Assembly: GCA_045588345.1 (NCBI GenBank)
Contig: JAZNDZ010000005.1
Location: 1,138-65,137, forward strand
Source: Bacteroidaceae bacterium
GTDB lineage: Bacteria; Bacteroidota; Bacteroidia; Bacteroidales; Bacteroidaceae
Length of the DNA: 64,000 nt
Reading direction: 5' to 3'
Of the stretch, positions 1,768 to 34,800 are shown in pieces. Made by a program: the position numbers and the translations under genes. Position 1 is the first letter of the stretch; each line of letters starts with the position of its first letter. The notes below the pieces were generated by a model, which saw nothing but the letters and a program-made list of their open reading frames with translations, ran no database searches and was not told the origin of the DNA.

Positions 1768-1770
1768 AAC

Positions 1771-2133
1771 TTACCATGTTGCCGAAAAGGCATCCTCAAT
1801 ATGTTCTATTCTGTAGGGCTCACACTTGCCGATGACTGTAATGACATCGAAACGGAATTTGAGGTCAACGTCATATTTTAGTATATAGGCCTGTGCTGCC
1901 GATATGAGAAGCCTGATTTTCTTGTCAGTGACAGCATCCTCGGCATTGCCGTATAGTTCACTGGCACGACTCTTGACCTCAACGAAAACAAGCGTATCAC
2001 CTTGTTTGGCAATGAGGTCAATCTCCTTATGCCCCGAGCGCCAATTGTAATGGAGCACGGCATATCCCTCGTTCAGCAAGTAACGGGATGCAAGCATTTC
2101 GCCTTTCTTTCCCAACAGATTGTGTTGCGCCAT
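1771..2133 (-). CDS. YraN family (UPF0102) endonuclease-like protein
   Basis: 120 aa. YL...GY.VL..NWR...EIDLIA...TLVFVEVKSR is the characteristic PD-(D/E)xK-like core of UPF0102. Confidence 0.85.
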   Translation of the reverse strand: MAQHNLLGKKGEMLASRYLLNEGYAVLHYNWRSGHKEIDLIAKQGDTLVFVEVKSRASELYGNAEDAVTDKKIRLLISAAQAYILKYDVDLKFRFDVITVIGKCEPYRIEHIEDAFSATW

Positions 2134-9504: not shown

Positions 9505-11427
9505 TTACAGCAGTCTCGCGAACAACTCTATTGCCTGATACTCGGGCAAGCCTATCTTGTTGAACAGTGCTGCTGTACCCTGTGTACGTTCCTCGGCACG
9601 CTGCCAGAACTCACGTGCGTCCTCACCGGGGAACGGAACAATATCCTTTTGTGAGAGATGGCGGAAGATTGCATGACGCTTGCGTATGAGTTCCTCGGGA
9701 CTGAGGGGCACTGCCATGTCAGCAACCGCCAAATCCCACTCTTGCCATGCGCCTCGGTAGAGCCATATATGGCACTCTTTTGCCCAAGGTTCGTCCTTTA
9801 CCTCCTCGAATGCGCGCAGCACTGCTTCAATACATACGCGGTGTGTACCGTGGGGGTCGGTGAGGTCACCTGCTGCGTAAATCTGATGAGGTTTGACCTC
9901 TCGCATCAGAGCCTTTACTATCTCAACATCTGCATCGCTCAACTGCCCTTTCTTTATACCGCCTGTCTCGTAGAACGGCAAGTTGAGGAAGTGAGCGTTG
10001 GTGCGGTCGTTAAGGCCTATTGAGCGGCATGCTGCACGTGCCTCGGCACGGCGGATAGCACCCTTGAGGTCGAGCAAGCGGCGCGGCTCGGGTTCGCCTA
10101 CCTTCTTATTGGCAATAACCTCGCGTATTTCGTCAAACGCGTCACCGAAGCCCATTTCCTTGGCGGTGTCAATATTCTGAAGCACAACATCGTCGTACAC
10201 GGCAACGTTGCCGGATGTCTCGTATGCAACATGCACATCGTGTCCCTGCTCTATGAGACGGTTGAATGTGCCGCCCATTGAGATTACATCGTCATCGGGG
10301 TGCGGCGAGAAGATGATGACACGCTTGGGGAACGGTGTTGACGGCACAGGACGTGTCGAGTCATCGGCATTGGGCTTGCCGCCGGGCCAACCCGAAATTA
10401 TATGCTGTATTTCATTAAATACGCGGATATTGATTTTGTCGTACGTTCCCACGCGGTCAAGAAGGTCGGATAGCGAGTTCTTGATGTAATCCTGACGTGT
10501 GAGTTTAAGGATAGGCTTGTCAACAGTCTGGCAAAGCCAGATTACTGCTTTGCGTATGAGTTTGTCGCTCCACTCCTGTGGAGGTGCTATAATCCAAGGT
10601 TCCTTGACGCGGGTGAGTTCCTGTGCAGCCGCCTCATCAATTACAACCTGAATATCGTCATGGTCCTGAAGGAATGTTGCAGGATACTCTTCGTTGACTT
10701 CGCCTTCAATGAGGTCGCGTGCTATCGCTGCTTTCTCCTCACCCCACATCATAAGCACAATCTTCTTTGCGCTCATTATTGTCTCAAGACCCATTGTAAT
10801 TGCCATCTTGGGTACTTCGTTGGGATTAGAGAAGAACTTGTCCTGGTTCTTGCGTGTATTGTAGCTGAGCTGGACAATGCGGGTTGTAGAGTGAGCATAA
10901 CTGCCCGGTTCGTTGAAACCGATTTGTCCAAGTTCGCCCACGCCCATAATCATAAGGTCGACATTGCCGTTTACCCTCTTTTCATACTGTTTGCAGTATT
11001 CGTTCAGTTTCTCAACCGGCACAGTGCCGTCGGGGAAATGCACGTTTGCAGGGTTAATGTCTATGAACTTAAGGAAATCCTCGTTCACTCTGTGGTTACG
11101 GCTCTGAGGCGAGTCGGCCGCCATTGGATAGAACTCGTCAAGGCTGTATACCTCTACATTTGCAAAGCTCACCTCGCCTGCGTTGTATCTTTTTACAAGT
11201 TCGTTGTAAAGACCAAGCGGTGTGCGCCCTGTTGAAAGACCGAGCACAAAAGGCTTTTCACCCTTATGTGACTTTATGGCATTTATAACAATGTCTGCTG
11301 CTCTTTGCACACCTTCGCTCTCCTGAGCGCAGATGCGTGTTGGAACTTTCTCGAATTTACAGATGCTTTCTATTGAAGCCAGTATCGGCATTTCGCCGAT
11401 TTTGGGAAGTACAAAATTTGGATTCAT
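9505..11427 (-). CDS. Long-form glucosamine-6-phosphate deaminase-like protein fused to a PIG-L/LmbE-type deacetylase domain
   Basis: 640 aa. The N-terminal half has NagB-like motifs (LGLSTGRTPLGLY, GVGELGQIGFNEPGS). The C-terminal half has SPHPDDDVISMGG, typical of LmbE/PIG-L. Confidence 0.8.
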   Translation of the reverse strand: MNPNFVLPKIGEMPILASIESICKFEKVPTRICAQESEGVQRAADIVINAIKSHKGEKPFVLGLSTGRTPLGLYNELVKRYNAGEVSFANVEVYSLDEFYPMAADSPQSRNHRVNEDFLKFIDINPANVHFPDGTVPVEKLNEYCKQYEKRVNGNVDLMIMGVGELGQIGFNEPGSYAHSTTRIVQLSYNTRKNQDKFFSNPNEVPKMAITMGLETIMSAKKIVLMMWGEEKAAIARDLIEGEVNEEYPATFLQDHDDIQVVIDEAAAQELTRVKEPWIIAPPQEWSDKLIRKAVIWLCQTVDKPILKLTRQDYIKNSLSDLLDRVGTYDKINIRVFNEIQHIISGWPGGKPNADDSTRPVPSTPFPKRVIIFSPHPDDDVISMGGTFNRLIEQGHDVHVAYETSGNVAVYDDVVLQNIDTAKEMGFGDAFDEIREVIANKKVGEPEPRRLLDLKGAIRRAEARAACRSIGLNDRTNAHFLNLPFYETGGIKKGQLSDADVEIVKALMREVKPHQIYAAGDLTDPHGTHRVCIEAVLRAFEEVKDEPWAKECHIWLYRGAWQEWDLAVADMAVPLSPEELIRKRHAIFRHLSQKDIVPFPGEDAREFWQRAEERTQGTAALFNKIGLPEYQAIELFARLL

Positions 11428-11564
11428 AATCTTTTAATTTTAATAGTCAGTTATTTAGTAAATTATTTCTTTTATCACTGTTTGGGCAGTCAATAACCTG
11501 TTCCACCCGAAGTTTTTAGTTTTAACCCTGCTTTGCCCGCTTGTTCAACCGTTGTTCTCTGTTT

Positions 11565-12815
11565 TTAGTTTTCTGTTTTCCGTTTCATCACTCCTGACGC
11601 GGGTTCACCTTTTTCAATAAGGGTTTTCATGCAACGCATGTAAGAGTCGGTATGACGGAAGAACATCTTGTATCCCTCACACAGTACATTCATATACGGT
11701 TCTCCGTTCTTGGCGTATGCAAAGCGGTGCTTTGGGCACTCGCCATGACAGAGAAAATAGTAGTTGCATCGCTTGCACTCCATAGGAAGGGCATCGCGCT
11801 TGTCGCGCCCGAAACTCTGCTGTTCGTCACTGCGGTACATATCGGCCAGTTCACCGGTCATGATGTTTCCCAAACGGTATTCAGGGTAGACGAAGTGGTC
11901 GCATGAATATACATCGCCGTTATGCTCAACCACCATTCCGTCACCGCACACTTCGCCAAAAGCACAAAGCGGGGGCTGTACGCCGCACCAGTTTGCAAGC
12001 GTAACGTCGAAAAGCTGTACAAAGCATTTGCCTACATCGAATTTTACCCATTCGTCGAACACGTCGCACATGAACTGTCCGTATCCTTTTGACGAAACCG
12101 ACCATGGAGCCTCAACGGCATCCTCTTCGTCGGGCGACACAATGAGCGGGCGCTTGCCGGGGCGCTGACGTACATACTCCACTACCGGCAGGAACTGCAT
12201 GAAGGGGTTCAAGGAACGCAGGAACTTGTAGACCTCGGCACCGCGCCCTTCGCTGCGCGCATTCACAGTGGATAGGATATTGAACTCTGTGCCGGTACGC
12301 GACATCAGTTCAACCGCCTTTATGACCCTTGCAAATGTGGGAGCACCACCGCAGTCGCAGCGGAAGGCATCGTGGATATCCTGAGGACCATCGAGCGAAA
12401 GCCCTACAAGAAAGTTGTTATCCTTGAAAAAACTGCACCAATCCTCGTTAACAAGAATGCCGTTAGTCTGCAGGGTATTCTCTATGACCTTGTCACCCGC
12501 ATATTTCTTCTGCAACTCCATTGCCTTACGGAAGAAAGGAAGACCGGCCATAAGCGGTTCGCCGCCATGCCAGCAGAAGGTTATATTCTGCTGCGATACA
12601 CCTTGTATATATTGGCGTATATATGTCTCAAGCAGTTCATCGCTCATGCGGGGCATGCTGTTGCCATAGATTTCGCTCTTATCGCGGTAGTAACAATAGT
12701 GGCAATCGAGGTTGCAGGCCGAGCCGATTGGCTTGACCATTGTGCCGAAAGCAGGGGCGCGCCCCATCTTTGCGACATCGCCAAGATGTATTGTATTCCT
12801 TTTGTTACTTTTCAT
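11565..12815 (-). CDS. Anaerobic sulfatase-maturating enzyme (radical SAM/SPASM)
   Basis: 416 aa. CNLDCHYCYY radical-SAM cluster motif and a C-terminal Cys-rich SPASM region (CKRCNYYFLCHGECPKH). Adjacent to a sulfatase. Confidence 0.9.
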   Translation of the reverse strand: MKSNKRNTIHLGDVAKMGRAPAFGTMVKPIGSACNLDCHYCYYRDKSEIYGNSMPRMSDELLETYIRQYIQGVSQQNITFCWHGGEPLMAGLPFFRKAMELQKKYAGDKVIENTLQTNGILVNEDWCSFFKDNNFLVGLSLDGPQDIHDAFRCDCGGAPTFARVIKAVELMSRTGTEFNILSTVNARSEGRGAEVYKFLRSLNPFMQFLPVVEYVRQRPGKRPLIVSPDEEDAVEAPWSVSSKGYGQFMCDVFDEWVKFDVGKCFVQLFDVTLANWCGVQPPLCAFGEVCGDGMVVEHNGDVYSCDHFVYPEYRLGNIMTGELADMYRSDEQQSFGRDKRDALPMECKRCNYYFLCHGECPKHRFAYAKNGEPYMNVLCEGYKMFFRHTDSYMRCMKTLIEKGEPASGVMKRKTEN

Positions 12816-12833
12816 TACATGTTTACATTACAA

Positions 12834-14411
12834 TCATTCGGCAATGAACTGTTCCTCGCCATACTGCTTCTGAAGCATGACAAGTTTCTCTTTCAGTTGC
12901 GCGGTCACCTCTTCGGTACCGGGTTTGCCATAGATATTGTAAAGTTCATTCTTGTCGGTACGCAAATCATAGAGTTCCCAGATACCGTCCTCGTAGAAGT
13001 GTATGAGCTTGTGGGTCTCTGTGCGCACACCAAGATGACGTTTTACGGCATGCTCATCGGGATATTCATAATAGTGGTAATATATTCCATCGCGGTTGGG
13101 ATTCCACTTTTCGCCCTTGAGCAATGGCAAGAATGATTCACCATGGATATCACCCGGAACATCCACTCCTGCAAGTTCAAGGAATGTTGGAGCATAGTCT
13201 ATATTCTGTACCATCTGAGGTATATCACCCTTTGCCTTGCCACCCGGCAGACGTGCCAGCAACGGAGTACGGAATGACTCCTCGTACATCCAGCGTTTGT
13301 CGAACCAGCCATGTTCGCCCATGTAAAATCCCTGGTCCGATGTGTAGACTATCAGAGTGTTGTCCATCAGTCCGTTCTCTTCAAGGTAATCGAGCACACG
13401 ACCTACATTGCGGTCGACAGATGTTATCACACGCAGATAGTCCCGCATATACTGCTGATATTTCCATGCGTCAAGCGCCTTGCCTTCGTGACCTGCTGCT
13501 TTGAATTTCTCAATCACGGCATCGTAGTGCGCGTCCCATGCCTTTTTCTGCTCGGGATTCATATTGCTGTACATGCGACGGCCCCACTCTTCAAGGTCGG
13601 GACGGCTATGTATGGTACTGTCCTTATCGGCAAGTTTAAGGTCATAGACAAGGTCCATATCCTTGCTTATGGACATTCTCTGTATCTTGGCAGCCTCACG
13701 CCCGTCGTAGTTATCATAGAATGTAGCGGGAAGCGGGAAGTTGCTGTCGGCAAATAAATCCAGGTCGCATGTATCGGGCATCCAGGTACGGTGCGGTGCT
13801 TTGTGGTGCAACAGCAGGCAGAAAGGCTTTGAGTTGTCGCGCCCTGTAGACAGCCACTCGAGTGCGAGGTCGGTTGTAACATTGGTTGCATATCCCTCGC
13901 GCTGTACCTTCTCGCCGTTGCAGATGAATGTCGGGTTGTAGTAATCGCCCTGTCCAATGAGGATATCCCAATGATTGAAGCCGGTGGGTTCGGATGTCAG
14001 ATGCCATTTGCCTATCACTGCTGTCTCGTACCCCTGTTGCTGGAGTAATTTTGGGAAAGTCTGCTGGCTGCCGTCAAAAGAGGAACTGTTATCGGTGAAA
14101 CCGTTAGCAAGACTATGCTTGCCTGTAAGCATACATGCACGAGAAGGACCGCTGATTGAGTTTGCCACAAAACTGTTAGTGAAACGCACGCCGTCGGCCG
14201 CAATGCGGTCAATGTTCGGGGTGCGGATAAAAGTGCTGTCGTATGCGCTGATTGTCTGGTATGAGTGGTCATCGCACATGATAAAAAGTATATTCATGGG
14301 GCCTTCGGGCTTTGCCTCCTCGCCTGCGCATGATGCCAGCATGGGCAATGCAGCCACACCGGTCAATGAAAGTTCCAATGCTTTCCTAGTCTTGTCAATA
14401 ATAATATTCAT
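12834..14411 (-). CDS. Sulfatase (Ser-type formylglycine site)
   Basis: 525 aa. N-terminal signal with LASC lipobox-like site, MCDDHS metal site and sulfatase signature ISGPSRACMLTG (Ser rather than Cys at the modified position). Confidence 0.9.
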   Translation of the reverse strand: MNIIIDKTRKALELSLTGVAALPMLASCAGEEAKPEGPMNILFIMCDDHSYQTISAYDSTFIRTPNIDRIAADGVRFTNSFVANSISGPSRACMLTGKHSLANGFTDNSSSFDGSQQTFPKLLQQQGYETAVIGKWHLTSEPTGFNHWDILIGQGDYYNPTFICNGEKVQREGYATNVTTDLALEWLSTGRDNSKPFCLLLHHKAPHRTWMPDTCDLDLFADSNFPLPATFYDNYDGREAAKIQRMSISKDMDLVYDLKLADKDSTIHSRPDLEEWGRRMYSNMNPEQKKAWDAHYDAVIEKFKAAGHEGKALDAWKYQQYMRDYLRVITSVDRNVGRVLDYLEENGLMDNTLIVYTSDQGFYMGEHGWFDKRWMYEESFRTPLLARLPGGKAKGDIPQMVQNIDYAPTFLELAGVDVPGDIHGESFLPLLKGEKWNPNRDGIYYHYYEYPDEHAVKRHLGVRTETHKLIHFYEDGIWELYDLRTDKNELYNIYGKPGTEEVTAQLKEKLVMLQKQYGEEQFIAE

Positions 14412-14513
14412 CTTATGTCTGGTTTTTTCTGAAATTATGGAAAAAGTCCCTGAAGTCCCTACTGAATAGAGGCTTCGGGGACATTTTATGAATGTCGCTC
14501 GGAATCCCTATCC

Positions 14514-15473
14514 TTAATCCTTCCAGCCGAGAGCCGAAGCACCGAGTACTGCAGCATCAGCACCGGGGAGAGAAGACTTGAGTACCTTTACTTTGTCTTT
14601 CCACAAGAAGACGACATTTTCGTTCATCTGTTTGCGGATTGGTTCAAGCAACAGGTCACCGGCGTTTGCAAGACCACCGAAGAGGATAATGGCTTCGGGA
14701 GCCGAGAAAGCAATGAAGTTGCAGAAAGCATCGCCAAGAACCTTGCCGGTGAACTCGAAAATCTCTTTTGCCAATTTATCGCCCTGCATTGCAGCATCGA
14801 ACAGCATCTTTGACGTGAGTTCGTTAATGCATATATCGCGCAATGAACTTGGAGTATCGCGCTCAACAAGCCATTTCTTTGCTGTGCGTACGATACCTGT
14901 AGCCGAAGCGTATGTCTCGAGACAATCGGTACGGCCGCAACCGCATGCACGACCTTCAAGTACCGGCGATGTGGTATGTCCGAGTTCGCCCGCAAAACCG
15001 TCATGTCCATAGATAAGCTGTCCGTTGGCAACGATACCGCTGCCGACACCTGTTCCGAGAGTGATGTACACAAAATCCTTCATACCCTGGGCCACACCGT
15101 ACTTCATTTCGCCGATGGCTGCTGCATTAGCATCGTTTGTCACCTTTGTGACAAGACCTGTTTTCTTTTCAATGCGCCAGCCCAGAGGCACAATACCCTT
15201 CCATGGCAAATTGGCAGCATTCACAATCTCGCCGGTGTAGTAGTTGGCCATAGGAGCACCCACGCCTACGCCTTCGAGTTTGCCTGTACAACCGTTTTCA
15301 TCGGCAAGTTTCTTTATTACAGCTGCAATAGAGTCTGTATACTCCTCGATGTCGGGATGTGCCTGAGTCTTTATTGAATCATCCTTAGCCAAGATGTGTC
15401 CCTTGGCATCTACAAGACCGATTACGGTATTTGTACCGCCAAGGTCAATTCCAATTACATACTTTTCGTTCAT
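14514..15473 (-). CDS. ROK family sugar kinase
   Basis: The internal ATG at 15473 gives MNEKYVIGIDLGGTN (ATP-binding DxGGT). The ROK Zn motif GHT...CGCGRTDCLE is present. The 22-codon upstream extension looks non-coding. Confidence 0.85.
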   Translation of the reverse strand: MNEKYVIGIDLGGTNTVIGLVDAKGHILAKDDSIKTQAHPDIEEYTDSIAAVIKKLADENGCTGKLEGVGVGAPMANYYTGEIVNAANLPWKGIVPLGWRIEKKTGLVTKVTNDANAAAIGEMKYGVAQGMKDFVYITLGTGVGSGIVANGQLIYGHDGFAGELGHTTSPVLEGRACGCGRTDCLETYASATGIVRTAKKWLVERDTPSSLRDICINELTSKMLFDAAMQGDKLAKEIFEFTGKVLGDAFCNFIAFSAPEAIILFGGLANAGDLLLEPIRKQMNENVVFLWKDKVKVLKSSLPGADAAVLGASALGWKD

Positions 15474-15636
15474 AACTATATTTTGGTTAGTTTTATTCCT
15501 GTTTGCGAATGTAATCAAAAAAAAACAACTTATGCTCACATTGCCGTTATTTTTTATATTTTTTTATTTTATCGTTTACAATTCGGGAACTATTGCGTAT
15601 CTTCGCATGACACTTTAAATAAAAACCGTAACAAAC

Positions 15637-17286
15637 ATGATAAGAAAATTCATCACCTTTTCAATTGCAATATGCCTCGCTGCAACAGGCATCATTGCCC
15701 AGGAACAGGCAAAGCCTTCAGTTCTGCCTCAACCAGCCAAGATGACCCTTGGCAACAGCAACAGCCATTTTGAACTGAACAAGGATACAAGGATTGTATG
15801 CAAGTTTGATAATACCGATGTCAAGTACGCAATAGAAGAACTTGACCGGCTTGCTGTAATCATCTTTGGCAAGAAATTGAAAAAGAGCACAAAAATAGAG
15901 GAGGACAATCATATCATCATACGCCACGACGGTTCAATAAAGGCTGAAGGCTACACGCTTGACATCGCACCCGAAAACATTATAATAAAGGCAAGCGATG
16001 CGGCGGGAGTATTCTATGCCGTACAGACACTCAAACAGATTGTCCCCGTACAGGTTTACGAGACCCCCATTGACCTTGAAAGGATTTCACTCCCCACGAT
16101 GAAGATTGCCGATGCACCGCACTTCGCCTACCGCGGATTCATGCTCGACTGCTCACGCCACTTCTGGGATGTAGAGACCGTGAAGAACGTGTTGGATATT
16201 CTTGCCATGCACAAGATGAACCGTTTCCACTGGCACCTTACCGAGGACCAGGGCTGGCGCATTGAAATAAAGAAATACCCCTTGCTCACCAAGATTGGCA
16301 GCCTGCGCGAACAGACCACAACCGGGCATAACGAGGGCCTGGATGGCATACCCTACGGCGGTTATTACACTCAGAAGGATATAAAGGAGATAGTTGAATA
16401 TGCCAGCCAGCGTTTCATCACCATTGTTCCCGAAATTGAAATTCCAGGACACTCGCTCGGTGCGCTGAGCGCATACCCATGGTTAGGTTGCGAGGGAGAG
16501 AAAGGCAACTACAAGACATGGGCATACTGGGGCGTATCGAAACAGATTGCCTGCGCCGGACGCGAGAGTACATTCAAGTTCTGGGAGGATGTACTTACCG
16601 AAGTCATGGACCTTTTCCCCGGCGAGTACATTCACATCGGTGGCGACGAGGCACCGCGCGACATGTGGAAAGAGTGCCCCGACTGCCAGAGACGCATAAA
16701 AGAGAACAACCTGAAGAACGAGGCTGAACTTCAGTCATACGTAAACAGCCGCATCGAGAAGTTCCTGAACGCACACGGGCGCAAACTTATCGGTTGGGAC
16801 GAAATTCTTGAAGGCGGCGTAAGCCAGGGAGCAACCATAATGTCATGGCGCGGCACAGAGGGCGGCATTGCGGCAGCAAAGAAAGGCAACAGCGTCATAA
16901 TGACACCGAGTGCCTATTGTTATCTCGACTACCGCCAGACAACAGACCGAAAGGACGAACTTGACAGCAATGGCAGTTACGTCCCTCTTCGCAAGACATA
17001 CTCATTCAACCCGTACGACCAACTGGAGCAGAATGAACAGAAGTACATAATGGGTGTACAGGGCAACCTCTGGACCGAATATGTGACAACCCCCATGCAG
17101 TTGCAATACAAGGCACTGCCTCGCTTGGCCGCAATAGCCGAACTCGGCTGGAGCAATCCAGACCCGGCAACCAAAGACACAGAGGAATTCATTGGACGCG
17201 CAAAAGAACTTGCACGCTACTACAGCGTGTTCGGATGGTGTTTCGGCCGTCATTTCTACGAGGATGGCGTTCAGGTAGGCTGGTAA
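15637..17286 (+). CDS. Beta-N-acetylhexosaminidase (GH20)
   Basis: 549 aa with a signal peptide. Motifs RGFMLDCSRHF, HWHLTEDQGWR and HIGGDE (catalytic D-E pair). Confidence 0.9.
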   Translation: MIRKFITFSIAICLAATGIIAQEQAKPSVLPQPAKMTLGNSNSHFELNKDTRIVCKFDNTDVKYAIEELDRLAVIIFGKKLKKSTKIEEDNHIIIRHDGSIKAEGYTLDIAPENIIIKASDAAGVFYAVQTLKQIVPVQVYETPIDLERISLPTMKIADAPHFAYRGFMLDCSRHFWDVETVKNVLDILAMHKMNRFHWHLTEDQGWRIEIKKYPLLTKIGSLREQTTTGHNEGLDGIPYGGYYTQKDIKEIVEYASQRFITIVPEIEIPGHSLGALSAYPWLGCEGEKGNYKTWAYWGVSKQIACAGRESTFKFWEDVLTEVMDLFPGEYIHIGGDEAPRDMWKECPDCQRRIKENNLKNEAELQSYVNSRIEKFLNAHGRKLIGWDEILEGGVSQGATIMSWRGTEGGIAAAKKGNSVIMTPSAYCYLDYRQTTDRKDELDSNGSYVPLRKTYSFNPYDQLEQNEQKYIMGVQGNLWTEYVTTPMQLQYKALPRLAAIAELGWSNPDPATKDTEEFIGRAKELARYYSVFGWCFGRHFYEDGVQVGW

Positions 17287-17420: not shown

Positions 17421-20400
17421 ATGAAAAAAATCACTACCTTCTTATGCTTGTTGCTAATGACAACATTTGCATTGGCCGACGAGCCGTTCCGTAACCACCG
17501 TTACGACTCTTTCAAAGTGCTTGCTCCCGGCAACGAGAGCATTGTATTCATAGGAAACAGCATCACCGACATGCATTGCTGGCCCGAGGCATTCAAGACT
17601 TCAAATGGAGATTACCTGCCGATTGTCAACCGAGGCAATTCGGGCACCTATTCAACCGAGCAGAGCAATAACCTTGAAAGTTATATTGCAGGCAAGCCCA
17701 AAAAGGTATTCTTGATGATTGGCACAAACGACATTGCTACAAGCGGAGGCCTCAACTTCAGCGGAGAACAGGTTCTGCAATATGTAAAGAGCATTGTCGA
17801 GCGCATACACCAACGCTCGCCCCAGACAAAAATCTATCTTTACAGCATCCTCAATAACAAGACCGGCAACCGTGTCGAAGCCACATGGTTGCACACCAAC
17901 AAGATTGTAAAGGAGTATGTTGAGGCACAGAATGCCGAATGGTTGAAGTACATCGACCTTTATGACAAACTCACAGGCATTGCACAAGGTGGCGTATGGA
18001 GTTACGACTACCTGCACTTGACAGCCGCAGCATACCAAGTATGGTGCGAAACTATATGCGAGTACCTGGCTGAGGGCGAGGATTATACAGTTTCAACAGT
18101 TTATCCAAAGAACACATCAGCAATACAGGCCAACGGCGGCCTTGGCGGTGCTCATGGCATGCGCGCAACATATTTCAGCGCTTTGCCCATAAGCAATGAC
18201 GATGTACTTGTACTCGGTGACGAGTTCATAAAGAATGGCGAGTGGCAAGAACTGTTGGGTAATCTCAACGTAAAGAACCGCGGTACAGGCTGGGGATACG
18301 GTGGCGACATCGCTACCACAAGCAAACTTGTTGACGCGATGTACGCCGAAACAGGTGTAGAGAAAAAGGATGCTAAGGCAATCTTCATCTACACCGGAAC
18401 AGGCGACTGCAACGGCAGTACAAGCATTGAGACTGTAAAGTCCAATTACAAGGCATTAGTGGACAAAATTGCTGCCAAATCGCCCACATCAAAGATTTAT
18501 CTTTTGGCACTATGCCCCACAAACAACGCCACAACTAATACATCACGCATAAAGGTTCTCAACGATTACCTTGCAACACTTACAACAGAGAACATAGATT
18601 TCGTTGACACATACACCCCACTGCTAAACGGAAGCACAGCGAATACAAGATACTTCTACCCATCGAACTACCTCGGTGCCCTCGGCTATGTAAAGATGGC
18701 GAACCTTATGAAGGATGCTCTCGCTGAAGACTTCCCCGAAGATACATACACGGTGATAAGCGAGACCGATGCAGAAGTACGCTATACACAGGCAACACTG
18801 CGCAATACATTGTCACAGGTGATTGCACGCGGACTGATTATGGAGCGCGGCACTGCAATGGGACAGTATGACCCCGAGAAGATGGCAACATTCGACGCAG
18901 AACTCAACAATGCCTATGACCTGCTTGCCAAGGAAAGCATAACAGAGACTGAGGTTACCGAAATGGCAAACAAATTGAACCATGCCATTGAAACTGCATT
19001 GGCAATGCCAAAGGCAAGTACCACCGATGAAGAGTTCTGGTATCAGTTCACATCTTTGCGCAGCCCTAATCTCTACGTTACAGCAGAGGGTGAAGCCGCA
19101 GGTGTGGCAGGCAAGGACAACACTGCGTCACAGGCAACATCAATGTGGAAATTCGTTGACCGCGGCGACAATTCATTCGACATTGTGAATCGCAAGTACG
19201 GTTCATATCTGAACCCCGTTGCCAATTACAACACACAGATTACAACTACAAAGACCAAGCCCGCAAATGGTTGGACTGTAAGTTATGCAAACACACCCGG
19301 CTATTACATCATCTCTTCAGGTGACGTGCAACTTAACCAGACAGGCTCGGGGCAGAGTTTCACAATATACAACTGGAGTAGCAGCACAAGCCTTGGCAGT
19401 GACCGCGGCGATACTGGTTGCCAGTTGGCAATTGCCGAAGCCGGAGAAATTGAGGAACTGCCCACATCATTCACATATACAGTTGACAAGAACAACGGCA
19501 ATCTTTACCGCGGAACGTCGGTAAACCAAGCATGGAACAGCACATGGAAGAGCAATAGCACACCCCAGTTGCAGTTCGGTTGCGGAACTATTAACAACAT
19601 GAACTGGGTCGACAACAATGTGCAGTTGATGACAGGAACAGCCGGCAGTGCAACATACACACTCACAGCACCTGCAGGCTATACCATTGCCGACTACAGT
19701 TTCACATTTGCCAACAACGGCCATACGACCGGCCTCGCACTGACAATGGATGACGGCACAGAGTACACCACTTCTGCTACCCCGCAGACAATCAGCGCTA
19801 CAAAGAAAGCATTCAGTTCTGTTTCGTTCACACTTGCCGGGAGCAACGGCAAAGGTGTAGTGCTCACTAACTTTACTGTAACAATAAAGGACGATTCTCC
19901 CGAAATGCCGGCAATAAGCACCGAGGGCAACGAGCATTGGTACTATATCACCAGCGCATCCGCAAAGACATATTGCGCAGGCAAGGTAATATACAACGAC
20001 AGCGAAACAGACAAACTACGCTTCGGTGACAAGACATTCAGCGCCGACCGTGTATGGAGTTTCTGGGAGAAGGACGGCAAACTGGCCATCAAGAACTACA
20101 AGGGCGAATATTTCGGCACAGCCGGAGCCGGAACCGGAGGCAGCACCTCATTCGGAACTGTTGAAGAGGCTAACTATATATATAACATACAGAGTTCATA
20201 CGGGTTCTTCATAATCAAGGACAACGCTGTCGAACTCCATGCACAGCAAGCCGGCGAAGTAATTGTACGCTGGGGGGCAGAAGAGGGCGGAGCATCGCTC
20301 TGGCGCTTTGACGAGGTTGACACAAGCAATGCGCTTGCAGAACTTGCTACAACCAATGTTGCACAAGGCAAGGTGAGCACCGGCATCGGCAATAAAGACC

Positions 20401-22070
20401 AGGCTATCGTGCGCTCTACTATACGCATCAGCGGCCTTGAGGGCAATGTAGAGTTCCAGGGCGTGAAGGGCGCGTTTGTCGGGACTGACAAGAACGACAT
20501 CGCCAACGTAAAGGCATACTTCGCCACCAATTCACGCGAACTATTCATTGATGCCGATAAGAAGATGACTTGGCGCGAGGAGAACGGAGAGCAGTTCGGC
20601 CAGGCTGTAACAATCAACGATGACGGCACGTTCAGCATCACCGGCACAAAGAGCCTTGAGCCGGGCGACCACTACCTTTGGATTACATACGACATTGCCG
20701 AAAATGCCAAGGAGGGCAACACCGTTGATGCAAACATCACAGCATACACTGTGGACGGCAAGGATGTTGCCGAGAGCAGGGGCAATCCCGAGCACAGCGT
20801 TACGATATTCCTTTCAGAGGGTGCAGTGCTCATGCCAATGGACAAAGGTTCGCTCTACTACCGCATACCGGCTATCACTGTAACAAAAGACGGCAAACGT
20901 CTTGTCACACTAACCGACGACCGCAAAGGCCATAACGCAGACCTTCCTTCGCACTGCTACCTGGTAGCGCAGTACTCCGAGGACAACGGCCGCACATGGA
21001 GCAACCCTGTTACCGTTGCCGGAACAGCAGAAACAGGCGGTAACTACGGACACGGCGATGCTTCAATCGTTACCAACCGTGAGAATGGCGAAATTGTGGG
21101 TATAATGACAAGTGCCGGAACATACGGCCACGGATTCTTCGCCGGAACAGCAGCAGAGCCTCCACGCTGGAAGACTATTACCAGCCGTGACGGCGGCCTT
21201 ACATGGGAAGCACCTGTTGACCACACTGATGACCTTTTTGGTGCAAACTGTTCAAATCCTAACACAAACACATGGAAGAGCGGATTCTCAGGTTCGGGCG
21301 CAGCACTCCAGAAACGCGACGGAACACTTGTGTCAAGTTTTGTAAACCGCCAGGCCGACAACAGCCAGCATTTCTACTTCTTCATGAGCAAGGACGGCGG
21401 TCAGAACTGGTATGTGAGCGGAACAAGTGGTACAAGCGGTGCCGACGAGCCAAAGACACTTGAGCGCAACAACGGCGACCTTGCCATAAGCGTACGTTCA
21501 AGCGGATACAACTACTACAACTACACATCGGATGACGGCGCTACATGGCATTTGCCTTCACAGACACGTTTCACAAGCGGAATTTCCGGCAATGCATGCG
21601 ACGGCGAGTACATGGTATGGTGCTCCACCGTTGAAGGCAATCCATGGGATGTTGCATTGCAGACACTGCCTAACAGCGGAAGCCGCCAGAACGTGAGCAT
21701 CGCTCTCTCAACCGACGAAGGCGCAACCTTCGGTACGCCGAAGACTATCTGCCCAAGAGGCTCAGCATACAGCGCAGCAGTAGTTTTGCCCGACGGCACA
21801 CTCGGCGTTTATTACGAGGAGAACGGACTGTTCGGAGGCTACACCATGCGTTTCGTGCGCTTCTCGCTCGACTGGGCAAGCAACGGCAAATACAAGTTCA
21901 CTGACGAGAACCCCTTCTACCCTATCAGGTCGACCAACCCTACAGGAGTTGAAGAACTGGAAACTGAAAACGGAAAAGTGAAAGAGATTTACGACCTGCA
22001 AGGCCGCAAGGTAGAGAACCCCGATAAAGGTATATATATCATTAACGGAAAGAAGGTTTTTGTAAAGTAA
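17421..22070 (+). CDS. Multidomain secreted enzyme: SGNH esterase, degenerate SGNH-like domain, lectin-like middle region, GH33 sialidase and T9SS C-terminal sorting domain
   Basis: 1549 aa with a signal peptide. Domain 1 has SGNH blocks FIGNSIT / GNSG / IGTND / DYLH. Domain 2 has GDEF / GTGD / NYLG at the same blocks. The C-terminal part has YRIPAI and Asp boxes SEDNGRTW, SRDGGLTW, SKDGGQNW, SDDGATW and STDEGATF. The tail IYDLQGRKVENPDKGIYIINGKKVFVK is T9SS CTD-like. Confidence 0.85.
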   Translation: MKKITTFLCLLLMTTFALADEPFRNHRYDSFKVLAPGNESIVFIGNSITDMHCWPEAFKTSNGDYLPIVNRGNSGTYSTEQSNNLESYIAGKPKKVFLMIGTNDIATSGGLNFSGEQVLQYVKSIVERIHQRSPQTKIYLYSILNNKTGNRVEATWLHTNKIVKEYVEAQNAEWLKYIDLYDKLTGIAQGGVWSYDYLHLTAAAYQVWCETICEYLAEGEDYTVSTVYPKNTSAIQANGGLGGAHGMRATYFSALPISNDDVLVLGDEFIKNGEWQELLGNLNVKNRGTGWGYGGDIATTSKLVDAMYAETGVEKKDAKAIFIYTGTGDCNGSTSIETVKSNYKALVDKIAAKSPTSKIYLLALCPTNNATTNTSRIKVLNDYLATLTTENIDFVDTYTPLLNGSTANTRYFYPSNYLGALGYVKMANLMKDALAEDFPEDTYTVISETDAEVRYTQATLRNTLSQVIARGLIMERGTAMGQYDPEKMATFDAELNNAYDLLAKESITETEVTEMANKLNHAIETALAMPKASTTDEEFWYQFTSLRSPNLYVTAEGEAAGVAGKDNTASQATSMWKFVDRGDNSFDIVNRKYGSYLNPVANYNTQITTTKTKPANGWTVSYANTPGYYIISSGDVQLNQTGSGQSFTIYNWSSSTSLGSDRGDTGCQLAIAEAGEIEELPTSFTYTVDKNNGNLYRGTSVNQAWNSTWKSNSTPQLQFGCGTINNMNWVDNNVQLMTGTAGSATYTLTAPAGYTIADYSFTFANNGHTTGLALTMDDGTEYTTSATPQTISATKKAFSSVSFTLAGSNGKGVVLTNFTVTIKDDSPEMPAISTEGNEHWYYITSASAKTYCAGKVIYNDSETDKLRFGDKTFSADRVWSFWEKDGKLAIKNYKGEYFGTAGAGTGGSTSFGTVEEANYIYNIQSSYGFFIIKDNAVELHAQQAGEVIVRWGAEEGGASLWRFDEVDTSNALAELATTNVAQGKVSTGIGNKDQAIVRSTIRISGLEGNVEFQGVKGAFVGTDKNDIANVKAYFATNSRELFIDADKKMTWREENGEQFGQAVTINDDGTFSITGTKSLEPGDHYLWITYDIAENAKEGNTVDANITAYTVDGKDVAESRGNPEHSVTIFLSEGAVLMPMDKGSLYYRIPAITVTKDGKRLVTLTDDRKGHNADLPSHCYLVAQYSEDNGRTWSNPVTVAGTAETGGNYGHGDASIVTNRENGEIVGIMTSAGTYGHGFFAGTAAEPPRWKTITSRDGGLTWEAPVDHTDDLFGANCSNPNTNTWKSGFSGSGAALQKRDGTLVSSFVNRQADNSQHFYFFMSKDGGQNWYVSGTSGTSGADEPKTLERNNGDLAISVRSSGYNYYNYTSDDGATWHLPSQTRFTSGISGNACDGEYMVWCSTVEGNPWDVALQTLPNSGSRQNVSIALSTDEGATFGTPKTICPRGSAYSAAVVLPDGTLGVYYEENGLFGGYTMRFVRFSLDWASNGKYKFTDENPFYPIRSTNPTGVEELETENGKVKEIYDLQGRKVENPDKGIYIINGKKVFVK

Positions 22071-22310: not shown

Positions 22311-24431
22311 ATGAAAAAACTCTTTCTGGCATTATTGCTTGCTTTGCCGCTATTGGCAACAGCACAGGAGAAAATTAAGGTTGCCTGCGTAGGCAACAGT
22401 GTGACATACGGTTACGGGCATGAGAACCCTGCCAAGACATCTTACCCCACCCAATTGCAGCAACTAATGGGCGAGGAATACGAGGTACGCAACTTCGGGC
22501 ACTCGGGCGCAACGCTGCTGAACAGCGGTCACCGGCCATATACCAAACTACCGGAATACAAGGCTGCGCTTGATTGGCAACCGGATATTGTTGTCATTCA
22601 TTTGGGACTGAACGATACCGACCCACGCAACTGGCCAAACTACCGCGATGAATTCTTCAGTGATTACACCGGCATAATTGACAGTTTCAAGAAAGCACAC
22701 CCCGACGGCAACCCACAGATATACATTTGCCGCATGACACCTATTTTCCATTGGCACCGCCGTTTCAAGAGCGGTACACGCGAGTGGTACTGGCAGATAC
22801 AAGAAGAGATAGAAAAGATTGCACAACACTGCAATATTGAACTGATTGACCTGAGCCGACACCTCTACAGCCGTCCCGACCTGATGCCCGATGCACTGCA
22901 CCCAGACCCGGAAGGTGCTGCAATTATAGCCAAGCAGGTCTATTCGGCGATAACCGATGATTTCGGCGGGTTGCAGTTGCCTGCAATATACAGCGACAAT
23001 ATGGTTGTTCAGCGCAACACACCGTTTATTGTCAGCGGAACCGCCGATGCAGGCAAGGAAGTTATTGCACGCTTCGGGAAACAGATGAGGGTGACTAATG
23101 CAGCGCAGGACGGCAGCTGGAAGGTCATGTTCACCCCAATGGATGCAGACGGCGAGAAATACAGCATATCTGTTGAATGCGGGAAGGATAAGATTAAGTT
23201 CAAGAATGTTGTTGTAGGCGAGGTATGGCTCTGCTCGGGCCAATCAAACATGGCATTCATGGTCAAGGAGAGTTCACACAAAGCACAGAGCCTTGCCAAC
23301 ATAAAAGGCAAAGACATTCGCTTCTATGACATGAAGCCGCGTGTTGTTACCGACAATATCGAGTGGGACAGCACTAACCTTGCAGCACTAAACCGTCACG
23401 ACTATTACAAGCCTACGGCATGGCAGTTGCAGAACGAGAAAAACGTGAGCGACTTCTCGGCTGTGGCTTACCATTTCGGAGCAATGCTTGCCGACTCGCT
23501 TGGAGTACCTGTGGGGCTTGTATGCAATGCTGTAGGCGGTGCTCCTGCTGAGGCTTTCATTGACCGCAAGACTCTGGAATTCAACCCCACACTTGTGGAC
23601 ATTTTATACAACTGGCGCGAAAACGGCATGATACAGGAGTGGTGCCGCGGCCGTGCAGCCCAAAACATTGCCAAAAGCACAGACAGACTGCAACGCCACC
23701 CCTACGAGCCTTGCTACCTGTACGAGACAGGCATCGCGCCCATAGCCTGTTACCCAATCAGGGGGGCTATCTGGTACCAAGGCGAATCGAATGCACATAA
23801 TGTAGAACTGCACGAAATAATTTTCCCTACCCTCGTCGACAGTTGGCGACGCACATGGCAGAACCCCGAAATGCCGTTCTACTTTGTACAGTTATCAGGC
23901 ATAAACCGCCCGTCATGGCCACACTTCCGCGACTCACAGCGCAGACTCGCCGATTCTATCCCATTCTGCGACTTTGCAGTATCAAGCGACAAAGGACACC
24001 CTACAGATGTACACCCCAAGGAGAAAGCGCCCGTAGGCGAGCGTCTTGCACGCCTTGCCCTTAATCAGACATACGGCATGAGCCACGTTGCTCAGCATGG
24101 CCCCACCCCCATGAGAGCATTCAGTTTCAATGGAAAGACAGTCATCGAGTTCAGCAATGCCACAGAACTGGCAACCAACGACGGCAAACCATTGCGTGGC
24201 ATTGAGATTGCCGGCAAGACAGGAGGCTTCACCGCTGTCGATTTTGAGAAACAGGCAAAAATCAAAGGCAACAGGATAATAATAAATTGTCCAGCCCACC
24301 GCATACGTTATGCATGGGAACCGTTCACCGATGCCAACCTTGTAAACGAAGCAGGGCTGCCTGCAAGCACGTTCGAAATAAAGGCAAGCGCTAAGCCAAG
24401 ACACCCAAGAAGAGAAAACGGAAACAGATGA
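22311..24431 (+). CDS. Sialate O-acetylesterase (N-terminal SGNH domain plus SASA/DUF303-type domain)
   Basis: 706 aa with a signal peptide. SGNH blocks CVGNSVTYG / GHSG / GLND / DALHP, then SASA motifs CSGQSNM, WYQGESN and DVHPKEK. Confidence 0.85.
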   Translation: MKKLFLALLLALPLLATAQEKIKVACVGNSVTYGYGHENPAKTSYPTQLQQLMGEEYEVRNFGHSGATLLNSGHRPYTKLPEYKAALDWQPDIVVIHLGLNDTDPRNWPNYRDEFFSDYTGIIDSFKKAHPDGNPQIYICRMTPIFHWHRRFKSGTREWYWQIQEEIEKIAQHCNIELIDLSRHLYSRPDLMPDALHPDPEGAAIIAKQVYSAITDDFGGLQLPAIYSDNMVVQRNTPFIVSGTADAGKEVIARFGKQMRVTNAAQDGSWKVMFTPMDADGEKYSISVECGKDKIKFKNVVVGEVWLCSGQSNMAFMVKESSHKAQSLANIKGKDIRFYDMKPRVVTDNIEWDSTNLAALNRHDYYKPTAWQLQNEKNVSDFSAVAYHFGAMLADSLGVPVGLVCNAVGGAPAEAFIDRKTLEFNPTLVDILYNWRENGMIQEWCRGRAAQNIAKSTDRLQRHPYEPCYLYETGIAPIACYPIRGAIWYQGESNAHNVELHEIIFPTLVDSWRRTWQNPEMPFYFVQLSGINRPSWPHFRDSQRRLADSIPFCDFAVSSDKGHPTDVHPKEKAPVGERLARLALNQTYGMSHVAQHGPTPMRAFSFNGKTVIEFSNATELATNDGKPLRGIEIAGKTGGFTAVDFEKQAKIKGNRIIINCPAHRIRYAWEPFTDANLVNEAGLPASTFEIKASAKPRHPRRENGNR

Positions 24432-31828: not shown

Positions 31829-34800
31829 ATGAAAAAAATTACACTCACCATTCTGGCGATTATCATGTGCCTTCCTATGGCAATGCGCGCCGACAGCGAC
31901 ATCAACCTTACTCCCTTGCCAATGAAGATGAGCAAGGGAAGCGGCAGACTTGTATTGCCGGAAAGTTTCACAATCGCTACAGGAGAACTCAATGAAGTGA
32001 ATGCAGCCGAAGCCGTGAAGTTCGCCGCACTGTTAAGCAAAGTCACAGGCTACAGCATTGAAGTAAAGAAAGATGCCGAAGATGCATTCGTTACAATGTC
32101 AATGTACACGGGCAGCGAAGAACTCGGGAGCGAGGGCTATACACTTGACATCAGTGCCGGCGGCATTGCCATTGCCGCCAATGAAGCCAACGGTTTCTAC
32201 TATGCCTTCCAAAGTATAAAGAAGATGCTCCCTGCCAATGTAATGGCAGAAGTAAAGGACGATAAAGTAACCGAGTACTCACTGCCGGTAGTGAACATTA
32301 CAGATGCTCCGCGTTTTGAGTACCGCGGATTCATGCTCGATGTTAGCCGCCACTATTTCAGCATTGAACAAATCAAACGCATGATTGACGTAATGTCATA
32401 CTACAAGATGAACCGCTTTCATTGGCATCTGACCGATGATCAGGGCTGGCGTTTCGAAGTAAAGAAATATCCTTTGCTTACAACAGTAGGCGCAACACGC
32501 AACGATAACTGGGTCACCGACCGCATATATGGCGGATACTACACAGGCGAGCCCTATGGCCCTTATTACTACACACAGGAACAGTGCCGCGAGATTGTGG
32601 CATACGCAGCAGAGCGTCACATCGAGGTTGTGCCCGAGGTTGAGTTCCCCGGCCATTCATGCGCTGTGAACGCAGCATACCCCGAACTGAGTTGTAACCC
32701 TAACGGAGCGCACAACGTCCAGGTAAACGGCGGCGTGTTCGACGACGTACTTAATGTGGCAAGCCCATTGGTGTTGCAGTTCGCAAAGGATGTTTTAGAT
32801 GAGATAATCGATGTATTCCCCTACAGCCAGATTCACATCGGCGGCGACGAAACACCAACAAGCGCCTGGCAGAATAATGCCGAATGCCAGGCAATGATGC
32901 AGGAACTTGGACTTACCAATGTACGCCAGTTGCAGTCACACTTCGTGCGCAAGTTATCGGATTATGTTACATCAAAGGAAGGCGACAAGAAACGCACCGT
33001 AATCATGTGGAACGAGAGCCTGACAGCCGGCGGCACCGATGAGGAACTAATCAAGGGTACAGGCGGCACAATGATGTGCTGGGAGATAGGCAACGCACAG
33101 CCATGCGCCCTAAAGGCCGCACAGTACGGTATGAAATCAATTATCACCACACAGGTTCCCTACTACATCAACCGCCGTCAGAGCACCGATGCCGATGAGC
33201 CCAAGGTCGCAGGCTACGGAACAGACAATGTAAAGGCGGTGTATGACTACGTGCCGATTCCGGCAAGCGTTCCAACGGAACTGCACAAATACTACATTGG
33301 CGTACAGGGAACATTCTGGACTGAGCATGTGCAGGAACACGACCTGCTCGAATACCTTGCCCTGCCACGTCTCACAGCCATTGCAGAAACCGGTTGGACA
33401 CCGGCAGCAAAGAAGAATTTCACCGATTTCCAGCAGCGTATAACAAAAGATACCCTCTTGCTCAACTACAATAACTACGACTACGGCCGTCACTATATAC
33501 TTGACGGCAACAGCAGCACAAGCGGCAAGGTGATGCCGGCAGCATCTACCGACGAAGAGCAGACCTGGTACCGCATTGTAACAACAGCCACTGACACCCG
33601 TGCCGGCCGTTGCATACAGTTGCTACGCCAAGGAATGAACATTGCCGACAAGACCGGCACCGCACCAGCCGGCCGCCTGTGGAACAGCGAAATAATAGAA
33701 GACAAGAACAACGAGGGATACAACTATCAGCAATGGGCATTCATGCAAGACCCCAATAACCCCGAACGCTGGGCAATAGTAAACAAGGCAAAGCCGAACG
33801 GCTCGGTAAAAGGCACACCTACAGCCGAGAACAATACAGGCCGTTGGGACTATGACGAGAACAACCGCCACTACGACTTTATCCTTGGCGACAAGGCATA
33901 CGCACAGAACGGCAACAACTACAACTACAGCATACGCAGCCAAAAGGTATCGAACAGCAATATGTGCCTCAATTATGCAGGCCCGGGACAGAACTACTCT
34001 ATCAACCTGTGGAGCGACCCGACAGACGGGAACGGTGGTATTTGGGAGTTCCGTCCGGTGGCAGCACAAGGCAGCATTGCAATCAATTACCCTGTAGCAG
34101 GAACATGCTACCGCATTATCAACAACACCGAACGTTTCCGGGGATTTAGCCTATATGACAATGGCAATGCGACCGTGACTGCCGCACAACAGAAGTACGG
34201 TGCCGATGTTTGGGAAATAACCGATGCTGCAATAACCGATGCAGGACAGACATTCAAATTGCGCAACGTGGCAACAGGCCGCTACATAAGCAGTGCCAAT
34301 GCTCCTGTAGCACTGGGCAACAACGGCGTGACACTCACCAATACATACAATACCATAAGCGGCGACTTCAGCATCACGGCCGGTGAAGGTGCACTCTACC
34401 CCATCCCCGAACGTGCAGCAACCAACCCGGGCACTTTAGGCAAGGGTGGCATATACCCGCAAGGTACAGGCTGGGTCTACGAAAGAGCCTTGCTTGCAAC
34501 ATACGAATGCTACGACAGTGACAACAACCTGCTGCAGAAATTCCACCAATCGGTATCGGAAGGCAAAGAATTTACGGCCGAAATTCCGCAAATAGCCAAT
34601 TACGAGGCGACATCGCACACGGTTGAAAGCGACGGAAACAACAAAATCATCAAAGTAAAATATAACCTTGTATCATACAGCATAACCTACAACTGCTACA
34701 CAATGGACGGCAACCTCATTGCAACCATCGATGTACCTTGCAGCATAGGCGACAGTTACTCTGTAGAGTACCCAGATATAGAGTTCTTTACATGCATTGG

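Follow-up and report, generated by a model that had tools for sequence, protein, structure and literature searches.

Gene, domain order and homologues

The window analysed here is a stretch of 64,000 nucleotides of contig JAZNDZ010000005.1 from a Bacteroidaceae bacterium (GCA_045588345.1), and the gene under study lies at positions 17421-22070 of its + strand. The listing of open reading frames (ORFs) and the translation showed that this interval is a single unbroken ORF of 1549 residues. The encoded protein carries two SGNH domains, D1 and D2, and a GH33 sialidase domain on one chain. The domain order is signal peptide, D1, D2, helical linker, beta-trefoil (T1), beta-sandwich (S), second beta-trefoil (T2), CBM93-type module, GH33 domain and a shortened tail of the type used by the type IX secretion system (T9SS); all parts are on the + strand. 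A Pfam scan of the whole protein produced two Lipase_GDSL_2 stretches, BNR_assoc_N and BNR_2 above the cut-offs, which correspond to the SGNH pair, the sialidase N-terminal module and the sialidase propeller, together with weak FIVAR and RicinB matches. No match was found in the NCBIfam scan of the whole protein. The signal peptide (residues 1-20, MKKITTFLCLLLMTTFALAD; 17421..17480) was read from the sequence as type I-like and without a lipobox, and its start position was the same in the homologues.

The GC content and the strand skews were continuous across the ORF with no break. A word-indexed search of 5.8 billion proteins showed full-length homologues in at least 120 clusters at 90% identity, with lengths of 1537-1562 residues, 81-91% identity and 99-100% query coverage, all of them from metagenome-assembled genomes (MAGs) of Bacteroidaceae or Bacteroidales. 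A scan with one genome per GTDB species showed that a relative was encoded in 151 genomes, from which 80 loci were kept. These loci came nearly all from uncultured Bacteroidaceae, Alloprevotella or Prevotella MAGs obtained from the caecum, colon or rectum of goat, sheep, yak, buffalo, deer and cattle, with a few under other MAG-collection labels (HGM). A continuous ORF of the same architecture was present in approximately 60 of the 80 species-level loci. Synonymous divergence of close relatives was near saturation (dS approximately 1.1), and the ratio of nonsynonymous to synonymous divergence (dN/dS) was 0.03-0.16 in every segment of the protein. Because the full-length ORF is conserved in at least 60 species-level ruminant-hindgut MAGs, the 1549-residue ORF is a real gene and an assembly or frameshift artefact is excluded. 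The single-polypeptide fusion that an earlier note on this DNA had described was borne out by the uninterrupted ORF and its full-length conservation.

The SGNH pair and its cassette

D1 (residues 21-220; 17481..18080) was identified by Pfam, alignment to solved structures and conservation as a complete SGNH esterase domain. Its Lipase_GDSL_2 score was 99 bits against a cut-off of 32.9, and its closest solved structure was PvSAE, the sialate O-acetylesterase of P. vulgatus (7PZG/6NJC; E-value 6e-21). Residues S47, G72, N103, D196 and H199 of D1 aligned with Ser52, Gly75, Asn103, Asp199 and His202 of PvSAE, the roles of which have been described (PMC9063846). The blocks are GNS (S47), NRGNSG (G72), GTND (N103) and DYLH (D196, H199), so that the Ser, Gly, Asn and Asp-x-x-His of an SGNH hydrolase are all present and the four blocks read earlier from the sequence alone held residue for residue on PvSAE. 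The catalytic residues were invariant in 70-72 of the loci that span them and in 137-139 of 139 divergent clusters, and the wide-family consensus was GNSI (137/139), GTND, GIND or GVND, and DxLH.

D2 (residues 240-445; 18138..18755) was placed by the 6NJC alignment and by family conservation as a non-catalytic SGNH paralogue. It aligned with 6NJC/7PZG over approximately 180 residues at an E-value of 2.4e-18, nearly as strongly as D1, and alignment of the two domains with each other (24% identity, E-value 1e-9) showed that they are homologous paralogues. The SGNH fold homology is present in D2 but the catalytic Ser, Asn, Asp and His are not. On PvSAE, GDE falls on GNS, GTGD on GIND and NYLG on DGLH; E268 replaces Ser, G328 Asn, N416 Asp and G419 His, while G288 of block II is kept. 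The loss of the catalytic positions at GDE, GTGD and NYLG, as the earlier note had reported it, was therefore confirmed in the PvSAE alignment. None of the more than 70 family loci had the His, and of the 137 divergent clusters 136 lacked it as well; the block III Asn was never present. A nucleophile retained elsewhere in the domain was considered and rejected, as no Ser, Cys or His was conserved anywhere in D2 across the 137 divergent clusters. In the same clusters the D2 consensus was GDEM in block I (with Glu in approximately 100 of 137), NRGxGW-GY in block II, G(T/V)x(D/E) in block III and N-YLY in block V.

In the close family, D2 showed a dN/dS of 0.083 and a mean identity of 77%, compared to 0.055 and 82% for D1. 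This near-D1 conservation and the low dN/dS argue that D2 is an ancient, long-lived pseudoenzyme under purifying selection and not a decaying copy. The idea of a recently stripped domain did not hold, since D2 belongs to an old pseudo-SGNH lineage that always travels with D1. In one subclade the position equivalent to E268 was occupied by Ser (codon TCA) in five loci (L063, L073, L074, L075 and L080) and by Ala (GCT) in another two (L062 and L079). This subclade keeps the block V Asp (DYIG) while the His and Asn are still missing, and single-base changes could have led from Glu through Ala to Ser.

The two SGNH domains were also found together outside the full-length family. When 1.84 billion representatives were scanned in full with HMMER, using residues 1-1200 as the query, the D1-D2 unit was found at the N-terminus of many proteins of 415-2500 residues at 33-50% identity, usually together with the linker helix and T1. 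The best 150 clusters at 50% identity were classified with domain hidden Markov models built from the family, and 136 of them had both D1 and D2. A GH33 domain accompanied D1-D2 in 44 of the 150 representatives, in several arrangements, and was missing from the D1-D2 proteins of another 92, among which the commonest form was D1-D2-helix-trefoil-tail. At least 11 cassette proteins (415-460 residues) consisted of D1-D2 alone. GH33 without the esterase pair was seen in 12 representatives (sandwich, trefoil, CBM93 and GH33 forms, one of which keeps D1 alone), and the remaining 2 were short pieces with neither D1-D2 nor GH33.

Module number varied between species. Long variants of 1700-2150 residues (L050, L063, L064, L074 and L075) had one or two extra beta-sandwich copies after the equivalent of residue 683, and some family forms had 156 extra residues before the tail. 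Paralogues of 890-920 residues (L067, L069 and L078) consisted of sandwich, trefoil, CBM93, GH33 and tail only, without the esterase half; L061 and L078 came from the same MAG, so that at least one genome has the short form as well as the full-length fusion. One 1261-residue cassette protein (P0131) carried the entire D1-D2-trefoil cassette twice in tandem. Two esterase-only cassette proteins of approximately 1100 residues (P0340 and P0371) carried PF02973 and Laminin_G_3 domains, which hints at sialoglycan targets.

Putative binding modules, sialidase, predicted sorting tail and neighbouring genes

D2 is followed by a helical linker (residues 446-535; 18756..19025) which is weakly FIVAR-like (Pfam FIVAR E-value 0.003, below the cut-off). 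The linker was the least conserved internal segment, with 62% identity and a dN/dS of 0.15. Residues 536-1135 were modelled with AlphaFold from 29 family sequences; the model had a predicted local distance difference test (pLDDT) score of 88 and showed four beta domains. The first, T1 (residues 536-683; 19026..19469), holds WKFVDRGDNSFDIVNRKYG and was modelled with a pLDDT of 83-93 as a ricin-type, lectin-like trefoil. The third, T2 (residues 833-975; 19917..20345), holds WSFWEKDGKLAIKNYKG. Foldseek matched both to beta-trefoils, namely the ricin-B domains of 2vse, HA33, fascin and cocaprin (TMt 0.79). Pfam RicinB_lectin_2 matched T1 weakly (E-value 0.015) and did not match T2. BLASTP between T1 and T2 was not significant (E-value 0.22), and the two were dropped as candidate sequence paralogues. 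Between them lies the CBM-like (carbohydrate-binding module-like) sandwich S (residues 684-832; 19470..19916), which when modelled alone showed a jelly-roll with a pLDDT of 94; Foldseek on the isolated domain produced weak jelly-roll CBM matches only, with template modelling (TM) scores of 0.3-0.45, and no CBM family could be assigned. The CBM93-type sialidase N-terminal module (residues 976-1130; 20346..20810) scored 35.1 bits with Pfam BNR_assoc_N against a cut-off of 25, and its Foldseek matches were the N-terminal domains of Sialidase26, BTSA and BDI_2946 (6mrx, 4q6k, 4fj6 and 4bbw). The lectin-like middle region of the earlier note is accordingly predicted as trefoil, sandwich and trefoil followed by CBM93, with one of its two quoted motifs in each trefoil, and the sialidase N-terminal module that it had placed next is supported by the BNR_assoc_N score. 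From the predicted folds, the trefoils, the sandwich and CBM93 would anchor the enzyme on glycan chains.

The GH33 exo-alpha-sialidase beta-propeller (residues 1131-1495; 20811..21905) was identified by alignment with P. gingivalis PG0352 (8GN6/8FEB; E-value 8e-40) and by Pfam BNR_2 (69.5 bits against a cut-off of 31.4). On PG0352, for which the catalytic roles have been described (PMC10553830), the catalytic set comprised R1148 (within the YRIP motif, confirmed at position 1147), R1359, R1422, D1174, E1343 and Y1450, with a one-residue uncertainty in where the pairwise alignment places the third catalytic Arg. The Arg triad, the Asp acid/base, the Glu-Tyr pair and the Asp boxes of a six-bladed propeller are all present. 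The catalytic residues were conserved in 79-80 of 81 family sequences and the domain had a dN/dS of 0.027. The count of five Asp boxes given before was nearly right: four are canonical S-x-D-x-G-x-x-W/F boxes (1186, 1255, 1323 and 1430) and the fifth is a shortened SDDGATW at 1370. By their residues, both catalytic ends of the protein, D1 and GH33, look competent. Three more GH33-like genes were found in the genome, at 14455-16035 (+) of contig C61, 16558-17448 (-) of contig C68 and 780-1922 (-) of contig C69, and a beta-sandwich copy with 35% identity lies ahead of the C61 gene.

The C-terminal sorting tail (residues 1500-1549, ending in VKEIYDLQGRKVENPDKGIYIINGKKVFVK; 21918..22070 with the stop codon) was compared with known T9SS C-terminal domains (CTDs). 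When the full protein was scanned, no T9SS sorting domain was recognised by either Pfam or NCBIfam, and the tail stays below the curated cut-off (TIGR04183/PF18962). The genome (2.48 Mb, 94% complete) encodes the T9SS components PorU (1032 bits) and SprA/Sov (2666 bits) as well as 11 ordinary TIGR04183 CTDs. Approximately 40 (36-40) large ORFs of the genome share a tail of about 45 residues with the pattern TGI..V..ENGK.K.IYDLQGRKV.....GIYI.NGKKVLVK. Alignment with hhalign of a profile of 36 such tails to the TIGR04183-positive CTDs of the same genome showed homology with 93.8% probability (E-value 1.7e-7), and relative to the canonical CTDs the tail lacks 14 residues, which are deleted between its IY..G..V strand and its G.YI strand. 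The tail is therefore read as a shortened, or truncated, type-A CTD, which makes T9SS export of the fusion a plausible and well-supported proposal from the profile alignment and the gene content. The T9SS C-terminal domain of the earlier note thus stood as CTD-like, with the export machinery present, but in a shortened form that scores below threshold. With approximately 40 tail-bearing ORFs compared to 11 canonical CTDs, the standard profiles under-count T9SS cargo in this lineage. The same tail of approximately 45 residues is also carried by a GH20 protein of 1270 residues elsewhere in the window (31829-35641, +).

Genes around the fusion were annotated with Pfam. A GH20 beta-hexosaminidase (15637..17286, +; Glyco_hydro_20 E-value 1.7e-119) ends 134 nt upstream, and this position was conserved in 40 related loci. 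A divergent block (9505..15539, -) encodes a ROK kinase, a sulfatase, an anSME maturase and a NagB/PIG-L fusion and recurs in 24-40 related loci; in more distant clades the neighbouring genes are different ones. Downstream by 240 nt lies a gene for a 706-residue esterase with Lipase_GDSL_2 and SASA domains (22311..24431, +), the architecture of NanS/EstA. This esterase carries a signal peptide but lacks a CTD tail, and both of its domains are apparently active (GNS...DALH and GQSN...QGESN). A NanS-like gene was downstream in 31 related loci and directly adjacent in approximately 20. Together, the neighbouring genes suggest a host-glycan context of the sialo- or sulfo-mucin kind. The notion of the fusion as a substitute for a separate NanS/EstA protein was not upheld: because a NanS/EstA-type gene lies directly downstream, the fused esterase is present in addition to the separate one. 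A division of labour is plausible, in which the fusion would work at the surface or extracellularly and the NanS-like enzyme in the periplasm.

On another contig (C108, 9524-11552, -) a nanL-like lyase of the DHDPS family adjoins an N-acetylglucosamine (GlcNAc) 2-epimerase, a pair resembling the nanL-nanE pair of Bacteroides. The lyase reached 119 bits with nanA, short of the E. coli-type cut-off, and the epimerase scored 147 bits with PF07221. The pair is consistent, as far as these scores go, with catabolism of N-acetylneuraminic acid (Neu5Ac) of the Bacteroides type.

Proposed function and relation to known systems

The ORF probably encodes a multi-modular extracellular enzyme for O-acetylated sialoglycans, such as those of host mucins, in which D2 would serve as an inactive partner of D1. 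O-acetyl groups on sialic acid block sialidases. The signal peptide would take the protein across the inner membrane, and the shortened type-A CTD would then hand it over to the T9SS for placement on the cell surface or release. The two trefoils, the sandwich and CBM93 would hold the enzyme on glycan chains. There D1, judged from homology and context, would strip the O-acetyl groups that block the sialidase, and the GH33 propeller of the same chain would then free the sialic acid. D2 would replace the homodimerisation that shapes the cleft of PvSAE, and its remodelled site with Glu, Trp and Tyr may additionally bind sugar. The freed Neu5Ac would probably be consumed by the bacterium, which has the nanL-like lyase and GlcNAc 2-epimerase on the other contig and the ROK kinase in the locus, and the adjacent NanS/EstA-type esterase, if periplasmic, would complete the de-acetylation after uptake.

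The role assigned to D2 follows from its closest solved relatives. Both PvSAE and the five structures that match it best form homodimers, with the N-terminal helix of one subunit packed against the His/Asp loop of its partner, and PvSAE itself is an obligate homodimer with an active cleft shaped by the partner subunit (PMC9063846). The N-terminal helices were among the most conserved positions of the wide family, with F23, R24, H26 and R27 in D1 and R248, F252 and P256 in D2. Tandem fusion with one silenced copy is a classic outcome for a homodimer that shares its cleft. By this analogy, D2 is most likely a fused inactive partner subunit that makes a pseudo-dimer with D1. Given that the cleft of this nearest solved relative is built by its obligate partner subunit, a pseudo-dimer is at least as likely as a role in sugar binding; the partner-subunit role is slightly favoured and both roles are compatible with each other.

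Several observations weigh against the proposed function. The case for a sialate-specific D1 is built on the fusion itself and on approximately 35% similarity to PvSAE, GH33 is missing from two thirds of the D1-D2 cassettes, and the neighbourhoods of the two stand-alone cassettes examined were uninformative on substrate. Of these, P0311 adjoins a type I restriction-modification system and NrdD, and P0291 is near a GH89-like gene and an acyltransferase. In D2, Met247 is the equivalent of PvSAE Gln31, which contacts Asp199 of the partner, and Met cannot form that hydrogen bond; in addition, the conserved Glu is swapped for Ser or Ala in one subclade and is therefore not indispensable. The last 70 residues scored 14.5 bits against TIGR04183, where the cut-off is 23 (E-value 0.026). 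Finally, database annotations of the family were limited to 'hypothetical', 'exo-alpha-sialidase' or 'lysophospholipase L1-like esterase'.

The alternative that survives best is that D2 descends from an esterase but serves mainly as a carbohydrate-binding module, which would hold sialic acid, possibly O-acetylated, without hydrolysis and so target the enzyme. This was judged possible, at rather less than even chance. The former catalytic blocks are the most conserved parts of D2 and show a new consensus (G266, D267 and E268; R287, G288, W291 and G292; Y417, G422 and Y423) in which Trp, Tyr and a carboxylate are typical for sugar-binding sites, and the purifying selection on D2 is strong. Further lectin domains (PF02973, Laminin_G_3 and RicinB) on some stand-alone cassettes point to a family built around glycan recognition. 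However, four putative binding modules are already present in the protein, an interface with D1 would equally explain the conservation of the former active-site loops, and Ser or Ala stands in place of Glu in one subclade.

A second alternative concerns the substrate of D1, which could be a general glycan O-acetylesterase for O-acetylated hexosamines or for polysaccharides of plants or bacteria, with the GH33 fusion being one of many domain-shuffling contexts among T9SS cargo. GH33 is missing in 92 of the 136 D1-D2 clusters, including those of the commonest architecture (D1-D2-helix-trefoil-tail), and neither of the two stand-alone cassettes is beside a sialidase. Lipase_GDSL_2 also takes in acetylxylan and mannan esterases (PMC9487903), and the ruminant hindgut is rich in plant glycans. 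Nevertheless, this alternative appears unlikely, as both D1 and D2 are closest to a sialate O-acetylesterase among solved structures, GH33 is joined to approximately one third of the cassettes, in several independent arrangements, the sialidase-type lectin PF02973 occurs in some cassette proteins and the locus context is host glycan and not plant. The sialate specificity of D1 is accordingly proposed from homology, from the fusion and from the locus context.

A new catalysis in D2 through its conserved Glu is very improbable: the Glu occupies the nucleophile position in approximately 100 of 137 clusters beside a conserved Asp (GDE), but neither a general base His nor an oxyanion Asn is conserved, a minority of clusters have Ala, Ser, Asp, Tyr or Cys instead of Glu, and a review of SGNH enzymes (PMC9487903) gave no precedent. 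The artefact that the earlier note had allowed for, in which an assembly or frameshift error fuses separate esterase and sialidase genes, has practically no chance and was rejected, as no direct support was found beyond the existence of shorter relatives (890-residue sandwich-trefoil-CBM93-GH33 forms and esterase-only cassettes) and the same continuous ORF is found intact in assemblies made independently, by many studies and from many animals, and shows nearly saturated synonymous divergence with a low dN/dS in every segment.

Comparison with known systems showed that the coupling of esterase and sialidase on one polypeptide is not new. SiaBb1 of Bifidobacterium bifidum, a characterised example in the accounts given by later papers, is an extracellular protein with GH33 and an SGNH sialate O-acetylesterase (Ashida et al. 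2018, cited through PMC10017367, PMC10298468 and PMC7232152), and its activity on 9-O-acetyl-Neu5Ac is stated there to aid the release of mucin sialic acid (PMC10017367, PMC10298468). Like SiaBb1 as so described, the present protein has an SGNH esterase and GH33 in one secreted polypeptide. However, SiaBb1 is a Gram-positive cell-surface enzyme whereas the present protein would be Bacteroidota T9SS cargo, and the tandem of active and dead SGNH domains, the trefoil/sandwich/trefoil insert and CBM93 set it apart from the SiaBb1 of those accounts. The two fusions, likened here by description, likely arose independently.

PvSAE (7PZG/6NJC; PMC9063846) shares with D1 the GNS-type block I, the Ser, Gly, Asn, Asp and His positions and the N-terminal helix, but it is a single-domain homodimer of approximately 220 residues, whereas here two diverged copies are fused and the second is catalytically emptied. 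NanS of Tannerella forsythia and EstA of Bacteroides fragilis share a presumed de-O-acetylation ahead of sialidase in Bacteroidota loci (PMC5512079; PMC10017367); they consist of SGNH and SASA domains without a sialidase, which is the architecture of the neighbouring gene at 22311-24431, and no Pfam match to SASA was found in the fusion protein, which is thus not of the NanS/EstA type. PG0352 (SiaPG), T. forsythia NanH and B. thetaiotaomicron BTSA have the CBM93-GH33 arrangement of the C-terminal 570 residues (PG0352 E-value 1e-41; PMC10553830, PMC9472817), at approximately 520-550 residues and without esterase, trefoils or CTD-type tail. The CBM93-GH33 half is in this respect a normal Bacteroidota sialidase of the PG0352/NanH/BTSA type. 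Large T9SS-sorted multi-domain glycan enzymes outside SusC/D-type loci have been described for a ruminant gut Bacteroidota, 'Ca. Paraporphyromonas polyenzymogenes' (PMC5831590), with plant-fibre cellulases in contrast to the host-type sialoglycan target proposed here.

What is new is the Bacteroidota version as candidate T9SS cargo, the trefoil/sandwich/trefoil insert and, above all, the conserved tandem cassette of active and inactive SGNH domains. No description of the Bacteroidota D1-D2 family or of any tandem active/inactive SGNH cassette was found in the literature, and a paper on vaginal Prevotella sialidases did not mention esterase domains. It is conceivable, as a tentative proposal, that D1-D2, with or without helix and trefoil, is an undescribed and widespread carbohydrate-esterase architecture of gut Bacteroidota in which the pseudo-SGNH domain is an obligatory partner of the active one, either as a fused half-dimer with a regulatory or structural role in shaping the substrate cleft or as the founder of an SGNH-derived CBM family for (O-acetyl)sialic acid.

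O-acetylation is the main natural shield of mucin sialic acids against bacterial sialidases, and the enzymes that remove the acetyl groups and the sialic acid decide which gut bacteria open mucus glycans. Hindgut Bacteroidaceae related to Prevotella and Alloprevotella would have a fused, T9SS-delivered solution of their own, unlike the NanS/EstA and NanH of Bacteroides or SiaBb1. If D2 were merely a spacer, the protein would be an ordinary multi-domain carbohydrate-active enzyme. If D2 is a partner subunit or a new sugar-binding module, this would explain the workings of the 'GDSL lipase-like' proteins of gut Bacteroidota, of which hundreds are uncharacterised, and the domain may offer a natural scaffold for probes that bind O-acetylated sialic acid.

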